Source of the DNA: a virus
Taxonomy: Duplodnaviria; Heunggongvirae; Uroviricota; Caudoviricetes
IMG/VR virus record: IMGVR_UViG_2690316149_000015
Span: 1 to 39,222 of that record
Reading direction: 5' to 3' (one strand)
Length of the DNA: 39,222 nucleotides
Under the pieces are notes generated by a model, which did not search any database, was not told where the DNA came from, and saw only the letters and a list, made by a program, of their open reading frames with translations. Below, in pieces: positions 23,051 to 35,632 of the stretch; within the stretch, counting starts at the first letter, position 1, and the number at the start of each line of letters is the position of its first letter. The translations under genes were made by a program, and so were the position numbers.

Positions 23051-23494
23051 ATGAATAAAGTTAAAAGTGTTTACAGCCCTTCCGAAAATGCAATCTACAA
23101 CGCAGCGCTATACGAAAGTTATATCAAGGAGGGGACATGGCCGCAGGATGGTATTGAAATCAGCGATGAGGATGCTGTCAGATTTAATGGGGGAAATAAG
23201 CCAACAGGAAAAATGCTGGGAATGGTTTCAGGGGCCCTTGCATGGGTTGATGAGCCGCCGCTTTCACCAGAACAGAAAATATCAGATGCAGAAAACATGA
23301 AAGCCACATTTCGTGCAAAAGCTGACAGTGAAATATCCTGGCGTCAGGATGCTGTTGATGCGGGCATTGCAACTGATGAAGAAACTTCAACTCTCACCCA
23401 ATGGAAGAAATACCGTGTGCTGCTGATGCGTGTTGATACTTCAACAGCCCCCGATATTGAATGGCCTACGCCTCCGGCAGTTCAGGCCAGATGA
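23051..23494 (+). CDS. tail fibre assembly protein (Tfa), inside the invertible segment
   Basis: 147 aa; C-terminal region (WKKYRVLLMRVDTSTAPDIEWPTPP) typical of Tfa/U-family chaperones; converges on a second tfa on the other strand. Confidence 0.85.
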   Translation: MNKVKSVYSPSENAIYNAALYESYIKEGTWPQDGIEISDEDAVRFNGGNKPTGKMLGMVSGALAWVDEPPLSPEQKISDAENMKATFRAKADSEISWRQDAVDAGIATDEETSTLTQWKKYRVLLMRVDTSTAPDIEWPTPPAVQAR

Positions 23495-24068
23495 CATCCG
23501 GCGCGGTGCTGGTATCTGTTGCCGTCACCGCGTCGATATAATCCAGCACAACGTTAAGGCGAGTTGTTTCTGCCTGCATCAACTTCCGTCCGGCCTGCAA
23601 TTTCAGTTGAATCAGACTGATGGAAGCCATAGCAGCATCAATAAGCGACTGGCGCTGTGCTTCTGCTGCATCTACTGCGGCGCTATGCTGTGCCTCGGTA
23701 TCCGTCACCCATTTCTCACCATCCCATTCATCGTATGGCGTTAACGGGGCGATAGTGGTCGTATTTTCAGGATAATCACCCGGACCTGTGATTTCTTTCA
23801 ATTCTCCTGTTTCGGTGCTATAAACGATTTCACCGCGATGGTCTGGCACATATTCCCATGAGTTTAAATCCATCGAACGGCAGATAGCATAACCCGCCTT
23901 ATGTGTGCCAGGGGCATCTAAACAGGAATATGCAGGGATACCGACACCAATGGCAAGATATTCATTTGAAGTGGAAATATATTCCCGAGTTTCACCATCA
24001 TAGTTATAGACGGTAATATTCCCCGCCTTCGTGGCAATAAGCTCGCTATTTAATACGGCGTTATCCAT
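23466..24068 (-). CDS. alternative tail fibre assembly protein (Tfa'), inside the invertible segment
   Basis: 200 aa on the minus strand with the same C-terminal Tfa signature (TSTAPDVIWPELPE); 3' ends of the two tfa genes overlap. Confidence 0.85.
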   Translation of the reverse strand: MDNAVLNSELIATKAGNITVYNYDGETREYISTSNEYLAIGVGIPAYSCLDAPGTHKAGYAICRSMDLNSWEYVPDHRGEIVYSTETGELKEITGPGDYPENTTTIAPLTPYDEWDGEKWVTDTEAQHSAAVDAAEAQRQSLIDAAMASISLIQLKLQAGRKLMQAETTRLNVVLDYIDAVTATDTSTAPDVIWPELPEA

Positions 24069-24523
24069 TATGCAGCCCTCACGATAAAGTTAAATGCAAT
24101 ATTTCGTGGACGGGTTTCACTCCCGCCATATGATGATGTAAATCCCGAATATGCCCGGTGTCCCGCATCCGTCGTATTAGCCCAGGAAGGACCGCTAGAA
24201 GTATAGATGACCCCATTGTAATCATGGCCGTGTGCCTCAATGCTCCCGTCCTGAGCAGACAGGAGAGTCCGTCCTGAATCAATTCCTCTTCCATCATCCC
24301 ACCCACGAATGAATTCGCCGCGTAAATCTGGCAATTTATTTGTCGGATAAACTTTTGCCAGTTCCGGATACTCTTCGGCAGAAAAAGCTGCACCGTTGCA
24401 TTTCAGCCAACCTGTTGGCGGTGTGACTGAAGGCCACGGAACAGGCACACCTACGGGTAATGCAGAGCCTTCTCCCAAACCAACGTTTATGAAAATGCAG
24501 AAATAACGAGCAAATGGCATCAT
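24068..24523 (-). CDS. silent alternative tail fibre C-terminal cassette (S'v-like), expressed only after inversion
   Basis: Contains the PVGVPVPWP..GW..C..G..F tail-fibre tip motif; its 5' end encodes NVGLGE across the right crossover site, in frame with LGLGE at the left site. The ORF-track start is probably not a real start. Confidence 0.8.
   Translation of the reverse strand: MMPFARYFCIFINVGLGEGSALPVGVPVPWPSVTPPTGWLKCNGAAFSAEEYPELAKVYPTNKLPDLRGEFIRGWDDGRGIDSGRTLLSAQDGSIEAHGHDYNGVIYTSSGPSWANTTDAGHRAYSGFTSSYGGSETRPRNIAFNFIVRAA
24470..24495. promoter_or_regulatory. Hin/Gin/Pin-family inversion crossover site (right)
   Basis: TTCTCCCAAACC-AA-CGTTTATGAAAA; reverse complement TTTTCATAAACG-TT-GGTTTGGGAGAA shares the central TT and 14 bp with the left site; lies just upstream of pin. 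Confidence 0.65.
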
Positions 24524-24549
24524 TCCTGCTTTTGTCAGGGAGATCTACC

Positions 24550-25104
24550 ATGCTTATTGGCTATGTACGTGTGTCAACAAATGACCAGAACACAGATCTA
24601 CAACGTAATGCGCTGAACTGTGCAGGATGCGAGCTGATTTTTGAAGACAAGATAAGCGGTACAAAGTCCGAAAGGCCGGGACTGAAAAAACTGCTCAGGA
24701 CATTATCGGCAGGTGACACTCTGGTTGTCTGGAAACTGGACCGACTGGGGCGCAGTATGCGGCATCTTGTCGTGCTGGTGGAGGAGTTGCGCGAACGAGG
24801 CATCAACTTTCGTAGTCTGACGGATTCAATTGATACCAGTACCCCAATGGGGCGCTTTTTCTTTCATGTGATGGGTGCCCTGGCTGAAATGGAACGAGAA
24901 CTGATTGTTGAACGAACAAAAGCTGGACTGGAAGCTGCTCGCGCACAGGGACGAATTGGTGGACGTCGTCCCAAACTTACACCAGAACAATGGGCGCAGG
25001 CCGGGCGATTAATTGCATCAGGCGTTCCTCGCCAGAAGGTGGCGATCATCTATGATGTTGGTATATCGACACTGTATAAGAAGTTTCCGGTCGGAGATAA
25101 ATGA
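24550..25104 (+). CDS. pin: serine DNA invertase, Pin/Hin/Gin family
   Basis: ORF 24514..25104, start taken at MLIGYVRVSTNDQ; catalytic serine motif and C-terminal HTH; recognised as essentially the e14 PinE sequence. Confidence 0.95.
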   Translation: MLIGYVRVSTNDQNTDLQRNALNCAGCELIFEDKISGTKSERPGLKKLLRTLSAGDTLVVWKLDRLGRSMRHLVVLVEELRERGINFRSLTDSIDTSTPMGRFFFHVMGALAEMERELIVERTKAGLEAARAQGRIGGRRPKLTPEQWAQAGRLIASGVPRQKVAIIYDVGISTLYKKFPVGDK

Positions 25105-25105
25105 A

Positions 25106-25143
25106 ACCGTAGCACGTCGTATGCAAGAAGATCGTGCTGCGGT
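25106..25143. terminator. putative bidirectional hairpin between convergent pin and GIY-YIG genes
   Basis: ACCGTAGCACG ... CGTGCTGCGGT, an 11-bp stem with one mismatch and a 16-nt loop, in the 60-bp gap between the two stop codons. Confidence 0.35.
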
Positions 25144-25164
25144 TTATGCTTATCACTTAAAGAC

Positions 25165-26034
<870 letters not shown>

Positions 26035-26117
26035 CTAACCCTTTGAATTTACATAGCGCAAAAAGATACCTTTCCTCATAATGTGAGCTAATTTTATGTT
26101 TCGTTTGATGATCGGGT

Positions 26118-26179
26118 CGGTCTCGAAAACCGGAGTAGGGGCAACTCTACCGGGGGTTCAAATCCCCCTCTCTCCGCCA
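26118..26179 (+). other. partial tRNA-Ser (serU-like, anticodon CGA) 3' fragment; probable prophage attR core
   Basis: CGGTCTCGAAAACCGGAGTAGGGGCAACTCTACCGGGGGTTCAAATCCCCCTCTCTCCGCCA matches my recollection of the serU 3' 62 nt (anticodon loop, variable arm, T arm, acceptor 3' strand, CCA). No D-arm or 5' acceptor sequence upstream. Confidence 0.65.
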
Positions 26180-26278
26180 CTTTATCAATGACTTATCTCC
26201 CGACTTCCCGCCTTGCTTTTCCTAAACAGAACAATCGTAGAATATTCTTGAAGGGTTAGATCGTCACTGTTTTCTGTT

Positions 26279-26505
26279 CAGAACAGAAAATATCAGATGC
26301 AGAAAACATGAAAGCCACATTTCGTGCAAAAGCTGACAGTGAAATATCCTGGCGTCAGGATGCTGTTGATGCGGGCATTGCAACTGATGAAGAAACTTCA
26401 ACTCTCACCCAATGGAAGAAATACCGTGTGCTGCTGATGCGTGTTGATACTTCAACAGCCCCCGATATTGAATGGCCTACGCCTCCGGCAGTTCAGGCCA
26501 GATGA
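26279..26505 (+). pseudogene. 5'-truncated tail fibre assembly gene (copy 2 of tfa 3' part)
   Basis: Duplicate of the tfa C-terminal 75 codons only; the N-terminal part is missing because the repeat unit starts inside tfa. Confidence 0.7.
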
Positions 26506-27079
26506 CATCCGGCGCGGTGCTGGTATCTGTTGCCGTCACCGCGTCGATATAATCCAGCACAACGTTAAGGCGAGTTGTTTCTGCCTGCATCAACTTCCGT
26601 CCGGCCTGCAATTTCAGTTGAATCAGACTGATGGAAGCCATAGCAGCATCAATAAGCGACTGGCGCTGTGCTTCTGCTGCATCTACTGCGGCGCTATGCT
26701 GTGCCTCGGTATCCGTCACCCATTTCTCACCATCCCATTCATCGTATGGCGTTAACGGGGCGATAGTGGTCGTATTTTCAGGATAATCACCCGGACCTGT
26801 GATTTCTTTCAATTCTCCTGTTTCGGTGCTATAAACGATTTCACCGCGATGGTCTGGCACATATTCCCATGAGTTTAAATCCATCGAACGGCAGATAGCA
26901 TAACCCGCCTTATGTGTGCCAGGGGCATCTAAACAGGAATATGCAGGGATACCGACACCAATGGCAAGATATTCATTTGAAGTGGAAATATATTCCCGAG
27001 TTTCACCATCATAGTTATAGACGGTAATATTCCCCGCCTTCGTGGCAATAAGCTCGCTATTTAATACGGCGTTATCCAT
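26477..27079 (-). CDS. alternative tail fibre assembly protein (copy 2)
   Basis: Identical translation to 23466..24068. Confidence 0.8.
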   Translation of the reverse strand: MDNAVLNSELIATKAGNITVYNYDGETREYISTSNEYLAIGVGIPAYSCLDAPGTHKAGYAICRSMDLNSWEYVPDHRGEIVYSTETGELKEITGPGDYPENTTTIAPLTPYDEWDGEKWVTDTEAQHSAAVDAAEAQRQSLIDAAMASISLIQLKLQAGRKLMQAETTRLNVVLDYIDAVTATDTSTAPDVIWPELPEA

Positions 27080-27534
27080 TATGCAGCCCTCACGATAAAG
27101 TTAAATGCAATATTTCGTGGACGGGTTTCACTCCCGCCATATGATGATGTAAATCCCGAATATGCCCGGTGTCCCGCATCCGTCGTATTAGCCCAGGAAG
27201 GACCGCTAGAAGTATAGATGACCCCATTGTAATCATGGCCGTGTGCCTCAATGCTCCCGTCCTGAGCAGACAGGAGAGTCCGTCCTGAATCAATTCCTCT
27301 TCCATCATCCCACCCACGAATGAATTCGCCGCGTAAATCTGGCAATTTATTTGTCGGATAAACTTTTGCCAGTTCCGGATACTCTTCGGCAGAAAAAGCT
27401 GCACCGTTGCATTTCAGCCAACCTGTTGGCGGTGTGACTGAAGGCCACGGAACAGGCACACCTACGGGTAATGCAGAGCCTTCTCCCAAACCAACGTTTA
27501 TGAAAATGCAGAAATAACGAGCAAATGGCATCAT
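27079..27534 (-). CDS. silent tail fibre C-terminal cassette (copy 2)
   Basis: Identical translation to 24068..24523. Confidence 0.75.
   Translation of the reverse strand: MMPFARYFCIFINVGLGEGSALPVGVPVPWPSVTPPTGWLKCNGAAFSAEEYPELAKVYPTNKLPDLRGEFIRGWDDGRGIDSGRTLLSAQDGSIEAHGHDYNGVIYTSSGPSWANTTDAGHRAYSGFTSSYGGSETRPRNIAFNFIVRAA
27481..27506. promoter_or_regulatory. second copy of the right inversion crossover site
   Basis: Position of 24470-24495 plus 3011 within the identical repeat. Confidence 0.6.
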
Positions 27535-27560
27535 TCCTGCTTTTGTCAGGGAGATCTACC

Positions 27561-28115
27561 ATGCTTATTGGCTATGTACGTGTGTCAACAAATGACCAGA
27601 ACACAGATCTACAACGTAATGCGCTGAACTGTGCAGGATGCGAGCTGATTTTTGAAGACAAGATAAGCGGTACAAAGTCCGAAAGGCCGGGACTGAAAAA
27701 ACTGCTCAGGACATTATCGGCAGGTGACACTCTGGTTGTCTGGAAACTGGACCGACTGGGGCGCAGTATGCGGCATCTTGTCGTGCTGGTGGAGGAGTTG
27801 CGCGAACGAGGCATCAACTTTCGTAGTCTGACGGATTCAATTGATACCAGTACCCCAATGGGGCGCTTTTTCTTTCATGTGATGGGTGCCCTGGCTGAAA
27901 TGGAACGAGAACTGATTGTTGAACGAACAAAAGCTGGACTGGAAGCTGCTCGCGCACAGGGACGAATTGGTGGACGTCGTCCCAAACTTACACCAGAACA
28001 ATGGGCGCAGGCCGGGCGATTAATTGCATCAGGCGTTCCTCGCCAGAAGGTGGCGATCATCTATGATGTTGGTATATCGACACTGTATAAGAAGTTTCCG
28101 GTCGGAGATAAATGA
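27561..28115 (+). CDS. pin: serine DNA invertase Pin (copy 2)
   Basis: Identical translation to 24550..25104. Confidence 0.9.
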   Translation: MLIGYVRVSTNDQNTDLQRNALNCAGCELIFEDKISGTKSERPGLKKLLRTLSAGDTLVVWKLDRLGRSMRHLVVLVEELRERGINFRSLTDSIDTSTPMGRFFFHVMGALAEMERELIVERTKAGLEAARAQGRIGGRRPKLTPEQWAQAGRLIASGVPRQKVAIIYDVGISTLYKKFPVGDK

Positions 28116-28175
28116 AACCGTAGCACGTCGTATGCAAGAAGATCGTGCTGCGGTTTATGCTTATCACTTAAAGAC

Positions 28176-29045
<870 letters not shown>

Positions 29046-29128
29046 CTAACCCTTTGAATTTACATAGCGCAAAAAGATACCTTTCCTCATAATGTGAGCT
29101 AATTTTATGTTTCGTTTGATGATCGGGT

Positions 29129-29190
29129 CGGTCTCGAAAACCGGAGTAGGGGCAACTCTACCGGGGGTTCAAATCCCCCTCTCTCCGCCA
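29129..29190 (+). other. partial tRNA-Ser 3' fragment (copy 2)
   Basis: Duplicate of 26118..26179 within the tandem repeat. Confidence 0.6.
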
Positions 29191-29774
29191 CTTTATCAAT
29201 GACTTATCTCCCGACTTCCCGCCTTGCTTTTCCTAAACAGAACAATCGTAGAATATTCTTGAAGGGTTAGATCGTCACTGTTTTCTGTTCGATACTGTGA
29301 CATTCAGCACTTGATTCGCTATGGATCTGACAGGAAGGTTTCGAGCGAAAATCTGCAGTTATTCAGTCGTTTTCTTATCGGTCACCATTATTCTTTTAGA
29401 CATTGATCCTACAAAGCTGCCGCAAAGTTGGTGGTGGGAACTGAAGTTGCGTAGAGAAGGGGTCAATACCCGGAGGCACACATGGGCTGGCAAAAGTGTA
29501 GCGGTATTAGGCGCAGCTATTTAGCCTAGTTATGTTTTATGAAAACTTGATGTCATATAAGTGTCTTACTTATTGGCTGTAAATAAGTTTTTTCTAAGGA
29601 ATTGTTTCTTGAGTATCATTTGTAACTGTAACGGAATTTATAATCCTTTGCTTTATTGTTACGGTATTTTTTATCACACCCTATTTTTTATGTGGTTTTT
29701 TATACTGAAGTTTGGCAAAGTGAACTTTATATGCATATACTTCATCCTAGTTTCAGTTAAATTGGGTGGATGAT

Positions 29775-30518
29775 ATGGCAACTACATGTTCAGTTATATT
29801 GATTATGGAGTCCTTTGATGTTTATTTCGGAAAAGAGAGTGTGTTTCTGGAGAGAGGTTCATCTGTACTTGTCGATTCTAGCTCTAGAGATTTTTTCCTG
29901 ACATATCCTGAAAGAGTGATAGTGGCGGATTTTGGCGCTGAGTTTATTAGTCGCTATTTGAAAGCTAATAACTTAAGGGATATTTCTGATTGTAGGGAAT
30001 ATCCATCTTATTTAAAAATAAACTTTGTTGACTTCAGTTTAATTAAAGGATTAATTAGTTGGGCTAATCACTGTGCTGAATACATAGAAATTTTTGATGA
30101 GTCTATTGCTTTTACATGTCTCTCTGCATTTTCTTCTGAAAAACAATTTGGAGTATTTCTGTTTGGATGTTTGAAAAGCACAGGGGCTAAAGTTAAAACG
30201 ATTATTCATACGGATTTATCTGCACCATGGCGTCTTAAGGATATATCATCAAGATTATATCTCAGCGAAAGTTTACTAAAGAGGAAATTGAAAGAAGAGG
30301 GGGTATCATTCAGTAAGATCATACTTGATGAGAGGATGCAAATGGCTGAATATTTACTCAGCACTCGTTGTTATCCTATTAGTAAAGTAGCTAAGGTCTG
30401 TGGTTATGCCAGTGTCTCATACTTTACTTATGTATTTAGACGTTATTTTGGTGTTTCTCCAAGTCAATACTCTCAGAGGAGTTCAGAAAGTAAAATTCTT
30501 ACTCACCAGGGAATCTGA
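29775..30518 (+). CDS. AraC/XylS-family transcriptional regulator (AppY/EnvY-like)
   Basis: ORF 29766..30518 starts at GTG; ATG at 29775. C-terminal double HTH (WRLKDISSRLYLSESLLKRKLKEEGVSFSKII...KVAKVCGYASVSYFTYVFRRYFGVSPSQY) resembles AppY/EnvY as I recall them; the gene sits in a strongly AT-rich block. Confidence 0.85.
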   Translation: MATTCSVILIMESFDVYFGKESVFLERGSSVLVDSSSRDFFLTYPERVIVADFGAEFISRYLKANNLRDISDCREYPSYLKINFVDFSLIKGLISWANHCAEYIEIFDESIAFTCLSAFSSEKQFGVFLFGCLKSTGAKVKTIIHTDLSAPWRLKDISSRLYLSESLLKRKLKEEGVSFSKIILDERMQMAEYLLSTRCYPISKVAKVCGYASVSYFTYVFRRYFGVSPSQYSQRSSESKILTHQGI

Positions 30519-30522
30519 TCAT

Positions 30523-30787
30523 TGTTCTTGCCCCCTTATTTCCAGACAGGGGGTGTATCTTAAGTTAACGTTACCCGCTGACGTCGATATTCTCGCGGAG
30601 AGCGATAACCCAACGCACTGTGCGGATGGTTTTCATTGTAATATTCGATCGCCACTGCAAGATTATGCAATGCCGTTCTTACATTCGGTTTCGGCATGAA
30701 CGCGATGTAGACTTCCTTCATCGTTTTCACGAACCTTTCTGCCATTCCATTACTCTGAGGACTGCTGATTACCCATGAGGAGTACAA
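30523..30787 (-). mobile_element. IS2-group (IS3 family) remnant: terminal inverted repeat plus transposase C-terminal fragment
   Basis: TGTTCTTGCCCCCTTATTTCCAGACA at 30523 resembles the IS2 terminal repeat; ORF 30560..30787 ends ...[14 protein letters not shown]...[18 protein letters not shown], like an IS2 OrfB C-terminus, with the upstream transposase missing. Confidence 0.65.
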
Positions 30788-31007
30788 TTAAACGGGTTAA
30801 TCAGTTTCTCCATTTGAAAGAAAAAAGACTTCTGTACTGTTTGATATCACCGCTATTTTCTTATTTTCTGTGCAGGTCGTAGTGGGACAAAACTGAGACA
30901 CATAAGGCCTCACAATGGCTTGCAAGGCTTTACATGTTTTGATGTGGTGGGACGTGTGAGCGCAGTGTTGATGGGGTAATGCTTTGAATTAGAAGCGGAT
31001 TCTTATA

Positions 31008-31053
31008 ATTCGTAATGCGAAGGTCGTAGGTTCGACTCCTATTATCGGCACCA
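31008..31053 (+). other. partial tRNA-Thr (thrW-like) 3' fragment; island att core
   Basis: ATTCGTAATGCGAAGGTCGTAGGTTCGACTCCTATTATCGGCACCA matches my recollection of the thrW 3' 46 nt from the anticodon loop to CCA; the 5' half of the tRNA is not upstream. Confidence 0.65.
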
Positions 31054-31381
31054 TTTATATCAAGCAATTACGATTAAATCCTCTCTTTGTCTGCATCATG
31101 ATTTTTTCCGTGTAACTCCATGTGTAAGTAATTTTCGTCAACATAAATCAACAATAGAGCATCCGTATCTCAGATTGGCTCAGTCTTGTTGATTTTTTCA
31201 TCTTGATGAAACAATATTTCTGATATTGATGTTGGACATTTGGGGGGCAGCTTAGCAGGCCTGTACAGGTTGTTTCATTGATTATTACTCTATATGCCTG
31301 CCCTTTTAGATAGCCCTTTCCTGTCTACTTCCATCTATGGTGTAATCCCTTGCGAGATTAAGGTTTCTTTCGAGAGATAGT

Positions 31382-32041
31382 ATGGAATTATTCGAAAATT
31401 ATTTGTCAGCGTTACCTAAAAAAAAGCGATTGAGTAAAGTCAAGTTGATTATCCTAAAGAGATTATGGGTTTCAGATGATTTTGATTTTCCTAAACCTTG
31501 GGTCCCATCGACAGAATTACTGGAATTGACAGGGCAAAAGTACTTCGATAGACGAACAAGAGAGTTGCGTGATGAACTAGGCTGTGATCTCGAAAGCTCG
31601 TACATTCCGGAATTCTCGGGACATGCTTGGCGGCTGAAATCAAGCATGATTGCCCCGCCAATGGAAAGGGAATATCTGACAGAATCACAACGATCCAGTT
31701 TATTTTCTAACTGCAGCAATACATGTGCAACATGTGGTAAAACTGTTGCCGCTGGGGTCAGGGGGCTACAAGCGGATCACAAAATACCTTTGTCACGCGG
31801 TGGTGGAAATGAGTTAACCAATTGGCAAGCTCTTTGCCACAATTGCAACGTAGGTAAGAGAAGAGCATGTGAGGGATGTACTGAAGATTGTTACACATGC
31901 TCATGGGCATTTCCTGAAAAATTTGGGATAACAACAATGCTCCATCTGCCAGAAGCTAGTTTAAGAAGAGCCCAACAACTAGCTGATGCAAAGGGTTTTT
32001 CTTTAGACGAAATCGTTGACTACGCAATACGCAAGCTTTGA
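31382..32041 (+). CDS. HNH endonuclease with N-terminal putative recognition domain and C-terminal RHH-like tail (candidate restriction endonuclease)
   Basis: 219 aa; zinc-binding HNH core (CATCGK...QADHKIPLSRGGGNELTNWQALCHNCN) plus a second Cys cluster (CEGCTEDCYTC); the 3' end overlaps the convergent methyltransferase gene by 22 bp. Confidence 0.8.
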   Translation: MELFENYLSALPKKKRLSKVKLIILKRLWVSDDFDFPKPWVPSTELLELTGQKYFDRRTRELRDELGCDLESSYIPEFSGHAWRLKSSMIAPPMEREYLTESQRSSLFSNCSNTCATCGKTVAAGVRGLQADHKIPLSRGGGNELTNWQALCHNCNVGKRRACEGCTEDCYTCSWAFPEKFGITTMLHLPEASLRRAQQLADAKGFSLDEIVDYAIRKL

Positions 32042-33090
32042 ACATCATTCGATTCCAGTGGTGATGCCAACTGTTTTTTTTTCATTAGATCAACCGCTTC
32101 GAGTGCTTTACGAATTTGCCTTCCTGTTGCTTCGGCAACAGGAGGAGGAAAAGCGTTACCTACTTGACGATAAGCAGCTGTTTTTTTCCCAGAGAATTCC
32201 CACCAGTCCGGGAAACCTTGGATTCGTGCAGCCATTCTCACCGTCAAACGAGGCATATTTTCAAGACCTGCTCGAATATTTCCGTCTCTTCCAATATACC
32301 CAGTAAACCCCTTTTCAGGGCTACTATCAGCTATGGAATGCCCGTTGACTCCAAGCGCTTGCCAAGCTTTTTTGGCTCTCGTCGGTCCAAGGTCTGGACC
32401 TCCATGCTTATGGGAACCGCCAACAAGTGTAGGGGCTATATTGTTAGCGGCCTTTCTCCATGCCTCGGCTCCTTCCCAGCCACCCTGTGACATTAAGTCA
32501 AAGAGAGCATCACCCACAGTCGGTGGTATCAACGTTTCACTCGGCCAACGAAAATGAGCGGAATACTTACCACGCAATGCAACTAAAAGAACTCGGGGAC
32601 GAAGCTGAGGAACTCCGTAATCAGAAGCGTTATGAAGTTTCCAAAAGGTTTTATAACCCATTGCAGAGAAAGCATGATCTAGTTCTTGTCGGTATTGTTT
32701 AAACTTTGGGTCTAATAAACCTGAAACATTTTCAATCATTACTGCTTTTGGCTTAATGATGTTCACAATTTTGAGCGCTGTTGGAAACAAATCACGTTCA
32801 TCATCTTTGCCTAGTTGTTTCCCTGCTTTTGAGAATGGCGGGCAGGGCACTCCCCCTGCGACCAAGTCAATATCAGAAAAATTATATGCAGTATGTTCAG
32901 CAAAATGCTTAACGCAACCCTCTATGATATTTTCCCAACCTAAAGAATGGAGCTCATTGTTGAGGCGAAGAGTTTCGCAGGCTGCAGGATCAATCTCGAC
33001 GAGCGCGCGGTGAGTGAAGCCAGCGTTATGTAACCCTAGAGCTTGACCTCCTGCCCCTGCACAAATCTCTACAGATGTGTATTGTAACAT
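32020..33090 (-). CDS. DNA (cytosine-5)-methyltransferase
   Basis: 356 aa with canonical C5-MTase motifs: I (EICAGAGG), IV (GGVPCPPFSKAG), VI (ENV), VIII (QLRPRVLLVA), X (GNAFPPPVA). Confidence 0.9.
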   Translation of the reverse strand: MLQYTSVEICAGAGGQALGLHNAGFTHRALVEIDPAACETLRLNNELHSLGWENIIEGCVKHFAEHTAYNFSDIDLVAGGVPCPPFSKAGKQLGKDDERDLFPTALKIVNIIKPKAVMIENVSGLLDPKFKQYRQELDHAFSAMGYKTFWKLHNASDYGVPQLRPRVLLVALRGKYSAHFRWPSETLIPPTVGDALFDLMSQGGWEGAEAWRKAANNIAPTLVGGSHKHGGPDLGPTRAKKAWQALGVNGHSIADSSPEKGFTGYIGRDGNIRAGLENMPRLTVRMAARIQGFPDWWEFSGKKTAAYRQVGNAFPPPVAEATGRQIRKALEAVDLMKKKQLASPLESNDVQSLRIA

Positions 33091-33885
33091 GTCATTAAAC
33101 CTGTATATAAAAACAGTTGTATGTTTATCTGATCAGAGACCATTACGCAACAAATTGTACAAAACAAGTAGTACCGTCGCTATTGAACCGGTCAGCTTAG
33201 TTACTTGATTGCTGAATGACAAGGCAATCTACAACTTTGTTTTGGAATCCTATATTTATCAAATAACTAACATTCGACAGTACTATTGGCATTCTCTTGA
33301 TCAGACAGGCAGAATCTCATGTGGACTGAATAAAATGCCTTAGCTGAGTACGAAAAGAACTACTATCTGTTTACATGATTTTTTGTCCGTAAGATGCATT
33401 GCGTCCGCTGTAAATAGCAGACGCATTCTGCAGAGAACAAATGAATAAGAAAGATTGGCACGCTGCTTGTGGAATTCAGCTTTGGCTTCGTCGCAACATG
33501 TCGGTTGTTTGTCGTGCTCGTAAGATATCTACGGTCTGAAGATAATGTGATTGCTCCCGCCTGCTCAACACTCTGTTATCGATACGAATCAGTTCGTACT
33601 TATCTACTAGGAAGTTGACTGTATCGGCTAAGGGGAATCCCGTTTTCAATATGTACCTTCATAACAGTGTCGTCAATGCGCTGCGTATCGTTAAGAGTCA
33701 GGCTGTAGTGTTTGTCCTGCAGGTATGTAACTAGGGGCTGTCAGACGGTTACAGAGGACTTCGCCACACGTTTTCGGGATATAGGTAAAATTCTCATCGT
33801 CGGTTATTCTGCGAATAAAAGAAATTAATTGCGGACGGGTTTTTCGCGGTACGTCACTGTCGTATGGCAGCCAGCGTATCTTGGT

Positions 33886-34294
33886 TTATGCCCTGCTCCG
33901 TATTGTTATGTCGGTCGGTATGGCATAATGCAGTCCTAGCTTTTTCATCGCTGGCAAATGTACCAGTGCGAACCGAAGGGGGGATTCACCGATCATCCTT
34001 TTCGCATACAGCGTGACGGTCTGCTGATGACGGGGATTCAGTTCACCGCTGGTGAACATGAGTTCCAGTTGTTTCATCAGCAGTGGAAAGGCTTGGTCCA
34101 GATGGTATGCATCCGCATCGCTGAACCGGCCTCTGATACCGGCGCGGTCTGCAAGGTAATGCAACTGATTGCCCTCCTGCACCAGACGGGCGCCAAAACG
34201 GGGTGTCACTGTCACGAACGGTGCAGGGCAGCCCCCACCAGGGGCGGTCGTGATTGTCGTCGGGATAATTTGTTTCATGGAGCGTGTCTGACAC
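33886..34294 (-). pseudogene. CbeA/YeeU/YfjZ-family antitoxin, frameshifted and 3'-truncated; cognate toxin absent
   Basis: MSDTL..DDNHDRPWWGLPCTV is in one frame (ORF 34043..34294), the continuation TVTPRFGARLVQEGNQLHYLADRAGIRG...TLYAK in another (ORF 33886..34308); family resemblance stops after TLYAK at about 34000. No toxin-sized ORF downstream. Confidence 0.6.
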
Positions 34295-34373
34295 GATAAA
34301 ATCCTCACAGAAAATCGGTTAAGAACGGTCAGGTAATGTCGATAATTCTGCTCATCAGAATGCCCTTACTGAC

Positions 34374-35149: not shown

Positions 35150-35632
35150 TCAGTCGATGATGCGCATAATGGCGCTGCATTCCGGATGCTGCAGGGCGTA
35201 ATCCCGCAACCGGTAATAATGGACCGTCATGGCATAACACTCCGTACGACAGGCATGATGACTGTACGTCATCAGACAGGCGGTAATGCCAGCTGCTTTC
35301 GGGCTCATTTCAGCGCGGTTACCGTTCATGGCACTGAACAGTATCCAGGTTTCATCATCGTCATCCGGTTCAGGGGCCATAAATGCCCCGCCGTTGTTCA
35401 GGGGGTACAGATTCCAGATACCACCACAGTAGTCTTCACACAGACGGTCCATCCAGCCAAAGATACGGGGCTCCAGGGTTACCCACTGTGGAATGAGGCT
35501 AAAGTGCTGCGGCCAGAAGCTGATGCGCTGTTCATCAGGGACGGGAGTGGCAACCAGTTGAGACTGGTTATTCCCTGATGCCGCAGTCACGGAAACAGAA
35601 GGTGTGGTGGAGCTATGCGAAAAGGTTGTCAT
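35150..35632 (-). CDS. antirestriction protein, ArdB/KlcA-like (YfjX/YafX family)
   Basis: 160-aa translation recognised as the YfjX/YafX family (WNLYPLNNGGAFMAPEPDDDD...); start overlaps the radC-like stop. Confidence 0.8.
   Translation of the reverse strand: MTTFSHSSTTPSVSVTAASGNNQSQLVATPVPDEQRISFWPQHFSLIPQWVTLEPRIFGWMDRLCEDYCGGIWNLYPLNNGGAFMAPEPDDDDETWILFSAMNGNRAEMSPKAAGITACLMTYSHHACRTECYAMTVHYYRLRDYALQHPECSAIMRIID

Follow-up and report, generated by a model that had tools for sequence, protein, structure and literature searches.

Type II restriction enzymes of the HNH (beta-beta-alpha-metal) class that work together with a methyltransferase are known from Hpy99I, KpnI and PacI, and other restriction-modification (R-M) systems, such as PvuII and Esp1396I, are regulated by a dedicated controller protein (C-protein). 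An HNH nuclease of another kind is the Type IV enzyme EcoKMcrA (PDB 6ghc), which depends on 5-methylcytosine (5mC) and acts alone on methylated DNA. We have analyzed a pair of convergent genes for an HNH nuclease and a C5-cytosine DNA methyltransferase in a stretch of 39,222 nt, the full length of IMG/VR record IMGVR_UViG_2690316149_000015, which we refer to as the window (Table 1). The DNA of the window is that of E. coli, and the pair is carried as cargo by a CP4-6-like island, at the end near thrW. Like Hpy99I, KpnI and PacI, the pair combines a small HNH nuclease that has Cys-based zinc sites with the gene for a protecting methyltransferase next to it; unlike these enzymes, the nuclease has no detectable sequence similarity to solved chains beyond the HNH core. 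Judged as a whole, with a modular nuclease and a methylase linked to a LexA box, the locus is best explained as a Type II R-M cassette, to which we assign a probability of roughly three in four. The pair itself is an ordinary two-gene R-M (anti-phage) system, and only two features appear unusual, namely a predicted LexA switch before the methylase and a small, probably dimer-forming tail on the nuclease.

The assignment as Type II draws on profile similarity and on gene linkage. The nuclease matches the REBASE-derived profile for Type II restriction endonucleases in PADLOC (REase_II, PDLC03478) with E=5.2e-21 (protein residues 50-207, profile positions 45-207 of 219), compared to 5.5e-4 for the best Type IV profile, mREase_IV. 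A scan of one genome per species gave 80 loci encoding relatives of the nuclease, and tblastn located a C5 methylase beside the nuclease homolog in 78 of them. These loci are spread over Gamma-, Alpha- and Betaproteobacteria, Cyanobacteria, Leptospira, Bdellovibrionota, Bacillota, Planctomycetota and others, and the two genes may be convergent, divergent or co-directional. That the linkage survives rearrangement across phyla argues for a functionally coupled pair. Furthermore, the partners co-vary: nucleases that are 39-93% identical to that of the window pair with orthologous methylases (46-92% identical; one exception), whereas nucleases with 30-35% identity, mostly from cyanobacteria and Bacillota, pair with a different C5 methylase (25-33%). 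The exception is a Desulfobaculum locus (L023, 4001-5779), where a nuclease with 57% identity adjoins a C5 methylase with 26% identity to that of the window, and which looks like the replacement of the methylase inside an otherwise orthologous system.

The first-pass annotation of this DNA, made from the sequence alone, had considered a compact Type II system to be the simplest explanation, which these results support. As an alternative, it had suggested a modification-dependent HNH enzyme beside an orphan methyltransferase, such that the HNH protein would be a McrA-like Type IV nuclease and the methyltransferase an unrelated orphan or epigenetic neighbor. EcoKMcrA is indeed, together with GVE2 and Gme HNH, among the solved relatives nearest to the HNH domain, but the similarity is limited to this nuclease domain. 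The methyl-reading N-terminal domain of McrA is not matched, no methyl-reading domain was seen in the window protein, and the match to the Type II profile is better by 17 orders of magnitude. Obligate linkage and co-variation of the partners are also hard to fit to a 5mC-dependent nuclease beside an orphan methylase, since a C5 methylase adjoins the nuclease gene almost throughout the family. Finally, permanent linkage of a 5mC-dependent nuclease with a 5mC methylase would amount to self-destruction, unless the two enzymes had disjoint specificities. We therefore hold the Type IV explanation to be very improbable and continue with the Type II cassette.

The methyltransferase was described in the first-pass annotation as a full-motif C5 enzyme, and this is borne out. 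The Pfam profile PF00145 (DNA_methylase) covers it end to end (protein residues 5-327, profile positions 2-323 of 324, 232 bits, E=1e-68), it passes the cut-off of TIGR00675 (dcm), 100.65, with 154.6 bits, and the methylase motifs I (EICAGAGG), IV (GGVPCPPFS), VI (ENV), VIII (QLRPRV) and X (GNAFPPPV) are present. There are at least 8000 candidate homologs, the best 120 of these at least 8000 being 64-92% identical to the window protein, and the nuclease has hundreds of full-length homologs with 55-92% identity. In view of these homologs, both proteins are products of real genes and not of chance open reading frames (ORFs). The target-recognition domain (TRD) of the methylase lies at approximately residues 171-278 and is 60% conserved among orthologs, with one block at 90% or more. 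The names that the homologs carry in their source records are all generic and give no clue to specificity.

The nuclease consists of four parts (Table 1), and in an alignment of 68 family members (A1) conservation spans its whole length. Its fold was modeled with AlphaFold2 on the basis of an alignment (mean predicted local distance difference test score, pLDDT, 89; predicted template modeling score, pTM, 0.56), while a single-sequence model (pLDDT 41) was discarded. The N-terminal domain, which had been noted as unassigned, can now be assigned as a generic winged helix. It is followed by the HNH domain, which Pfam HNH matches at residues 115-159 (E=3.8e-10) and in which C115, C118, C152 and C155 are the predicted [CxxC]2 zinc ligands and D132-H133, N147 and N156 the predicted catalytic residues. 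The catalytic motif, these ligands and the fold together place it in the HNH (beta-beta-alpha-metal) superfamily, and all invariant catalytic and zinc residues are intact in the nuclease of the window, which is full-length. The second Cys cluster that had been noticed earlier likewise held up: its four cysteines are invariant in 68 of 68 members and are retained in a distant subfamily, and it is presumed to be a structural zinc site that stabilizes the fold. Among solved chains, none matches the whole layout of winged helix, HNH, Cys4 cluster and tail, each match covering the HNH domain or the winged helix alone. A tblastn search of plasmid and phage collections returned no full-length relative of the nuclease.

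With respect to the C-terminal tail, its suspected resemblance to a ribbon-helix-helix (RHH) domain was upheld at the level of the fold. In the model, an extended segment (residues 183-190) is followed by two helices (191-204 and 208-218). Pfam RHH_1 is found in 16 of the 68 members (best E=1.2e-5), with the window protein itself below threshold, and hhalign aligns the tail profile with CopG at 94% probability. The last ~37 residues are thus like the CopG, Arc and MetJ repressors in that they align in register with CopG, but unlike in these repressors, the RHH is attached C-terminally to a nuclease, is of low conservation and comes without an operator that we could find. RHH domains exist only as dimers. 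Because the fold is obligately dimeric, the simplest role for the tail would be to pair two subunits, such that two HNH sites cut both strands.

A comparison of the four regions also bears on which of them might read the target. The tail is the least conserved, with a pairwise identity of 34%, whereas the other three regions reach 64-69%; conservation of the winged helix amounts to 62-64%, and that of the tail to only 25-34%. The winged helix is thus conserved alongside the TRD of the methylase and the tail is not, which suggests that the winged helix, and not the tail, tracks a presumably constant target. In the distant subfamily, the four parts are arranged in the same way, while the winged helix has other residues and the methylase is a different one, and this fits a model in which the winged helix is the reader domain. 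Judging from the protein sequences, we consider the tail more likely to be a dimerization module than a specificity element or a regulator.

The second unusual feature lies immediately upstream of the methylase gene. The pattern CTGT-N8-ACAG has a single match in the window, within the site ACCTGTATATAAAAACAGTT (Table 1). The 16 nt at the core of this site, CTGTATATAAAAACAG, are the same as in the LexA boxes of umuD and sbmC, and its flanks resemble those of dinI (ACCTGT) and dinD (ACAGTT) (PMC3009722, Table 4). With a symmetrized position-specific scoring matrix built from the 18 E. coli LexA boxes of the same source and leave-one-out scoring, the site obtains 21.9 bits, which is above 11 of the 18 known boxes, while the next-best site in the window reaches 10.2. 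In core and flanks it is thus like the operators of umuDC, sbmC, dinD and dinI, but unlike these E. coli SOS operators, it is a LexA operator predicted from sequence that fronts a horizontally acquired methylase gene.

The box recurs in relatives of the system. When the regions upstream of the methylase from E. coli, Citrobacter, Dryocola and Dickeya are aligned, a block with ACTGT-N8-ACAG is conserved and the flanks diverge; in Dickeya, four of the eight spacer bases differ, whereas the half-sites are intact. In six fetched loci (Citrobacter, Dryocola, Dickeya, two Neptuniibacter-like genomes and one Endozoicomonas), the box is the top-scoring site and always lies just upstream of the methylase. 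Taking all loci together, CTGT-N8-ACAG occurs six times in 12.2 kb of methylase-upstream windows versus five times in the other 590 kb. The loci with a box fall into three separate clades of a neighbor-joining methylase tree, all of them gammaproteobacterial lineages. By sequence, position and recurrence, we predict that the site is a canonical LexA box, to which LexA would bind.

Upstream of the methylase, there is no enrichment of the LexA motifs that hosts from other phyla use (GAAC-N4-GTTC, the cyanobacterial GTAC type, TTAC-N3-GTAA and TGTTC-N4-GAACA). One locus from Micavibrio, an alphaproteobacterial host (L020, 5703-5717), carries GTTCctattttGTTC approximately 54 nt upstream of the methylase, a single case that is not significant on its own. 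Its GTTC-N7-GTTC pattern is what we take to be the alphaproteobacterial type of LexA box. Our literature search found no report on a LexA-controlled Type II methylase, nor on this gene pair or this nuclease family. A precedent may lie in B. subtilis, where the BsuM methylase operon ydiOP reportedly belongs to the LexA regulon.

A different arrangement is found in six other loci (L005, L006, L007, L014, L016 and L018), which come from Thiotrichaceae, Methylococcaceae and Moraxellaceae. They carry two tandem palindromes GTAAATAAnnnCATTTAC upstream of the methylase, and exactly these six also have a divergent ORF of 64 aa (in L016, 5736-5927 on the plus strand) that resembles a helix-turn-helix (HTH) protein (weak Pfam match to a CI-repressor HTH, E=0.054). 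Within this R-M family, these loci represent a variant that resembles the systems with a controller protein. The protein from L016 has no tblastn match in the enterobacterial loci, and there is no small controller ORF between 33091 and 33475 of the window. As judged from the elements found upstream, control of the methylase thus appears to come from the LexA box here and, in some relatives, from a small HTH protein encoded separately, and the sequence ahead of the methylase behaves like a slot in which control elements can be exchanged. In common with PvuII and Esp1396I, the aim would be to time or balance methylase against nuclease, and six relatives carry the small HTH-like gene; unlike these systems, the window has no controller gene and instead a box for the host's LexA at the equivalent place.

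In this context, one may ask whether the tail of the nuclease is itself the regulator, since the first-pass annotation had raised the possibility of a fused regulator. The tail would then be an autoregulator of the nuclease or methylase promoter, and CTGT-N8-ACAG would serve it as operator and would not be a LexA site. The RHH fold, which did stand, is typical of repressors, no domain varies more than the tail, as would be expected from co-evolution with variable operators, and the lineages do differ in the palindrome upstream of the methylase. However, the palindrome core equals the umuD and sbmC boxes over 16 nt, the GTAAATAAnnnCATTTAC palindromes co-occur exactly with a separate small HTH-like gene, and the tail is kept in lineages that have neither element. 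Nor is the regulatory role supported upstream of the nuclease gene itself, where we found no conserved operator, inverted and direct repeats being weak and not kept between genera. A candidate extended -10 element of the nuclease gene (Table 1) can be read from the sequence, where a block TATGGTGTAATCCCTTG is shared by Citrobacter and Dryocola (three genera including the window), but not Dickeya; the consensus promoter scan did not pick up this element. Altogether, an autoregulatory tail seems unlikely to us, and we retain the predicted LexA box on the methylase and a tail that probably dimerizes.

Both genes are packed tightly. The overlap of their 3′ ends by 22 bp that had been described was confirmed by a six-frame ORF list. 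An overlap of exactly 22 bp is confined to the enterobacterial clade, whose methylase has a private C-terminal tail of 20 residues, while other convergent relatives mostly have a 4-bp overlap or a gap of a few bp. Tight packing is thus a habit of the family, and the figure of 22 bp has no special status. A scan of the locus found no terminator between the two genes; the sole terminator-like hairpin lies inside the nuclease gene, on the minus strand, and is within chance expectation.

From these elements, the following mode of action can be proposed. The methyltransferase would make 5-methylcytosine at a short site and thereby protect the host DNA. The winged helix of the nuclease most likely reads the same site, the HNH domain would cut, the Cys4 cluster would stabilize the fold, and the RHH tail most likely pairs subunits, so that both strands can be cut. 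The methylase is probably repressed by LexA to a maintenance level and boosted under the SOS response, for which breaks from self-restriction, repair, or entry as single-stranded DNA could be the triggers. Since the genes converge and overlap without a terminator, stronger transcription of the methylase could also interfere with expression of the nuclease. Taken one step further, the methylase might be a genuine member of the host's SOS regulon within a damage-feedback circuit, a Type II counterpart of "restriction alleviation" that would have arisen independently in no fewer than three lineages of Gammaproteobacteria. In such a circuit, under-methylation or entry into a new cell would lead to breaks or single-stranded DNA, LexA would be cleaved, and methylase transcription would rise and also run antisense through the nuclease gene. 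Micavibrio might use its alphaproteobacterial-type box in the same way, and other lineages might use their private HTH controller. We put this circuit forward tentatively, as a possibility that we would rate somewhat below even chances.

A number of points weigh against the combined picture of a modular Type II nuclease and a LexA-linked methylase. No solved methylase has the same TRD, such that the TRD yields no recognition site. The observed/expected ratios of 4- and 6-bp palindromes, compared between 342 kb of ortholog loci and the loci of distant relatives, likewise yielded none, the avoidance being generic only (GGCC, GTGCAC and others are low in both sets). PDB sequence and profile searches for the nuclease gave matches to the HNH core only and no named Type II restriction enzyme at E<=10, and no named REBASE prototype could be assigned. 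At a pTM of only 0.56, the arrangement of the nuclease domains is uncertain, and the RHH tail could act as a DNA-binding autoregulator instead of a mere dimerizer. As to the switch, most members of the family lack a LexA box, so that the system can do without one. For the methylase, neither the promoter scan nor manual reading gave a convincing -35/-10 pair, so that occlusion of its promoter by LexA is no more than a possibility, and a rightward promoter-like sequence on the plus strand (TTGTAA-18-TATAAA) overlaps the box, which could instead serve that sequence and a divergent transcript.

The genomic setting of the pair is informative in its own right. A tRNA-Thr att fragment that had been proposed upstream of it is real, but partial: 31008-31053 are identical to the final 46 nt of thrW in K-12 and in RM9387, where thrW is intact, and ARAGORN found no complete tRNA in the window. 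Also confirmed are the CP4-like core genes downstream, for which Pfam identifies the CbeA/YeeU antitoxin, DUF987, RadC and an antirestriction protein. In RM9387, the order is proA, thrW, the HNH gene, the methylase gene, a cbtA pseudogene, a yeeU pseudogene, DUF987, JAB/RadC, antirestriction, DUF932 and onwards. This island is CP4-6-like, and its toxin end faces thrW, as in K-12. The pair had been thought to occupy the place where the CbtA-family toxin would normally be. It does lie between the att site and the core genes, but the toxin has not been replaced, since a truncated cbtA persists. The cassette thus has the att site on one side and, on the other, a toxin gene that has decayed beside it and was not displaced. 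What is left of cbtA is its C-terminal half. The adjoining CbeA/YeeU antitoxin ORF starts with GTG and encodes 140 aa, and its annotation in RM9387 records a frameshift; the CbtA/CbeA toxin-antitoxin pair beside the cassette (33476-34308) is decaying.

Such decay raises the possibility that the cassette itself has decayed or been domesticated, with an inactive or nicking nuclease and a methyltransferase that is a LexA-controlled, solitary epigenetic or repair enzyme. Besides the decaying island (the truncated cbtA and the cbeA frameshift in RM9387), disrupted nuclease genes in the relatives L018, L032 and L036 fit this explanation, as would a LexA box on the methylase, which also suits a solitary role in DNA damage. 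Yet the nuclease ORF of the window is full-length and has kept every invariant catalytic and zinc residue, and it is at least 99.7% identical in the E. coli genomes listed with the pair. We consider decay or domestication to be improbable and prefer an intact Type II cassette. The 2.4-kb stretch with the pair is present (at least 80% covered) in 56 of 5426 complete E. coli genomes and is 99.7-100% identical among the E. coli matches listed. The carriers, about 1% of complete E. coli genomes, include some O157:H7 and O111 strains, and the RefSeq names of the two products in these genomes are "HNH endonuclease" and "DNA cytosine methyltransferase".

On the other side of the thrW fragment lie an insertion sequence (IS) integrase-core remnant, an AraC-family gene and a prophage tail module. 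With prophage-side genes on the left and the CP4-6-like island on the right, the fragment is thus an att repeat at which two elements adjoin that have stacked up at thrW. The region 27000-33400 is contiguous in none of the 5426 complete E. coli genomes. Its left part (prophage tail, pin, GIY-YIG, AraC, IS remnant) and its right part (R-M cassette and CP4-6-like island) occur separately and have in common only 64 nt around the thrW fragment (31008-31071). As the two parts are only ever separate in these complete genomes, the window records a rare stacking of two elements at thrW. Further to the left there is a perfect tandem duplication of 3011 bp (23268-26278 and 26279-29289, 100% identical), which holds a tail-fiber assembly gene, a tail-protein fragment, the pin invertase and a GIY-YIG (LEM-3-like) gene, and which is either a very recent event or an assembly artefact.

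Table 1. Features of the R-M cassette and its surroundings, in window coordinates.
Feature	Position	Strand	Remarks
AraC-family regulator gene	29766-30518		
IS integrase-core (rve_3) fragment, 75 aa	30560-30787		immediately left of the thrW fragment
thrW (tRNA-Thr), 3′ 46 nt; att-site repeat bounding the CP4-6-like island	31008-31053	+	blastn vs K-12 thrW; RM9387 match begins at 31008
Candidate extended -10 (TGgTGTAAT) of the nuclease gene	31338-31346	+	~35 nt upstream of ATG; putative, read from sequence
HNH nuclease ORF	31382-32041	+	219 aa
Nuclease residues 1-95, winged-helix domain, probable sequence-recognition module	31382-31666	+	
Nuclease residues 96-162, HNH (beta-beta-alpha-metal) domain	31667-31867	+	
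Nuclease residues 163-182, second Cys4 cluster C163/C166/C170/C173 (CxxCxxxCxxC), then SWAFPE	31868-31927	+	alignment A1
Nuclease residues 183-219 and stop, RHH (CopG-like) tail	31928-32041	+	AlphaFold2, Pfam RHH_1, hhalign
Convergent 3′ overlap	32020-32041	both	22 bp; a terminator would not fit (from the ORF ends at all loci)
C5-cytosine DNA methyltransferase gene, 356 aa	32020-33090	-	PF00145, TIGR00675
Predicted LexA operator (SOS box) ACCTGTATATAAAAACAGTT	33099-33118		9 nt separate its end from the methyltransferase ATG; overlaps the Shine-Dalgarno region
CbtA-family toxin gene, truncated remnant	33476-33649	-	Pfam CbtA_toxin positions 54-108 of 112, E=2.9e-18; pseudogene in RM9387
Antirestriction-family gene	35150-35632	-	PF03230, E=2.5e-35; same island, ~2 kb from the R-M cassette

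As an R-M system, the pair is routine, providing a lineage-restricted 5mC methylase and a barrier to phages and plasmids in ~1% of complete E. coli genomes, which is relevant for strain-specific methylomes and for transformability. It also corrects the picture of the island, in which the toxin gene has decayed beside the cassette. More noteworthy than the pair itself are the probable SOS wiring, the swappable control slot and the uncharacterized four-module nuclease family. This family, with its winged helix, HNH domain, Cys4 cluster and RHH tail, is large and widespread, and we found neither a solved structure of the whole layout nor a published characterization; its separate reader and cutter modules could serve engineering. 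If the LexA box works as predicted, a mobile defense system would be borrowing the damage sensor of its host to balance protection against self-attack.

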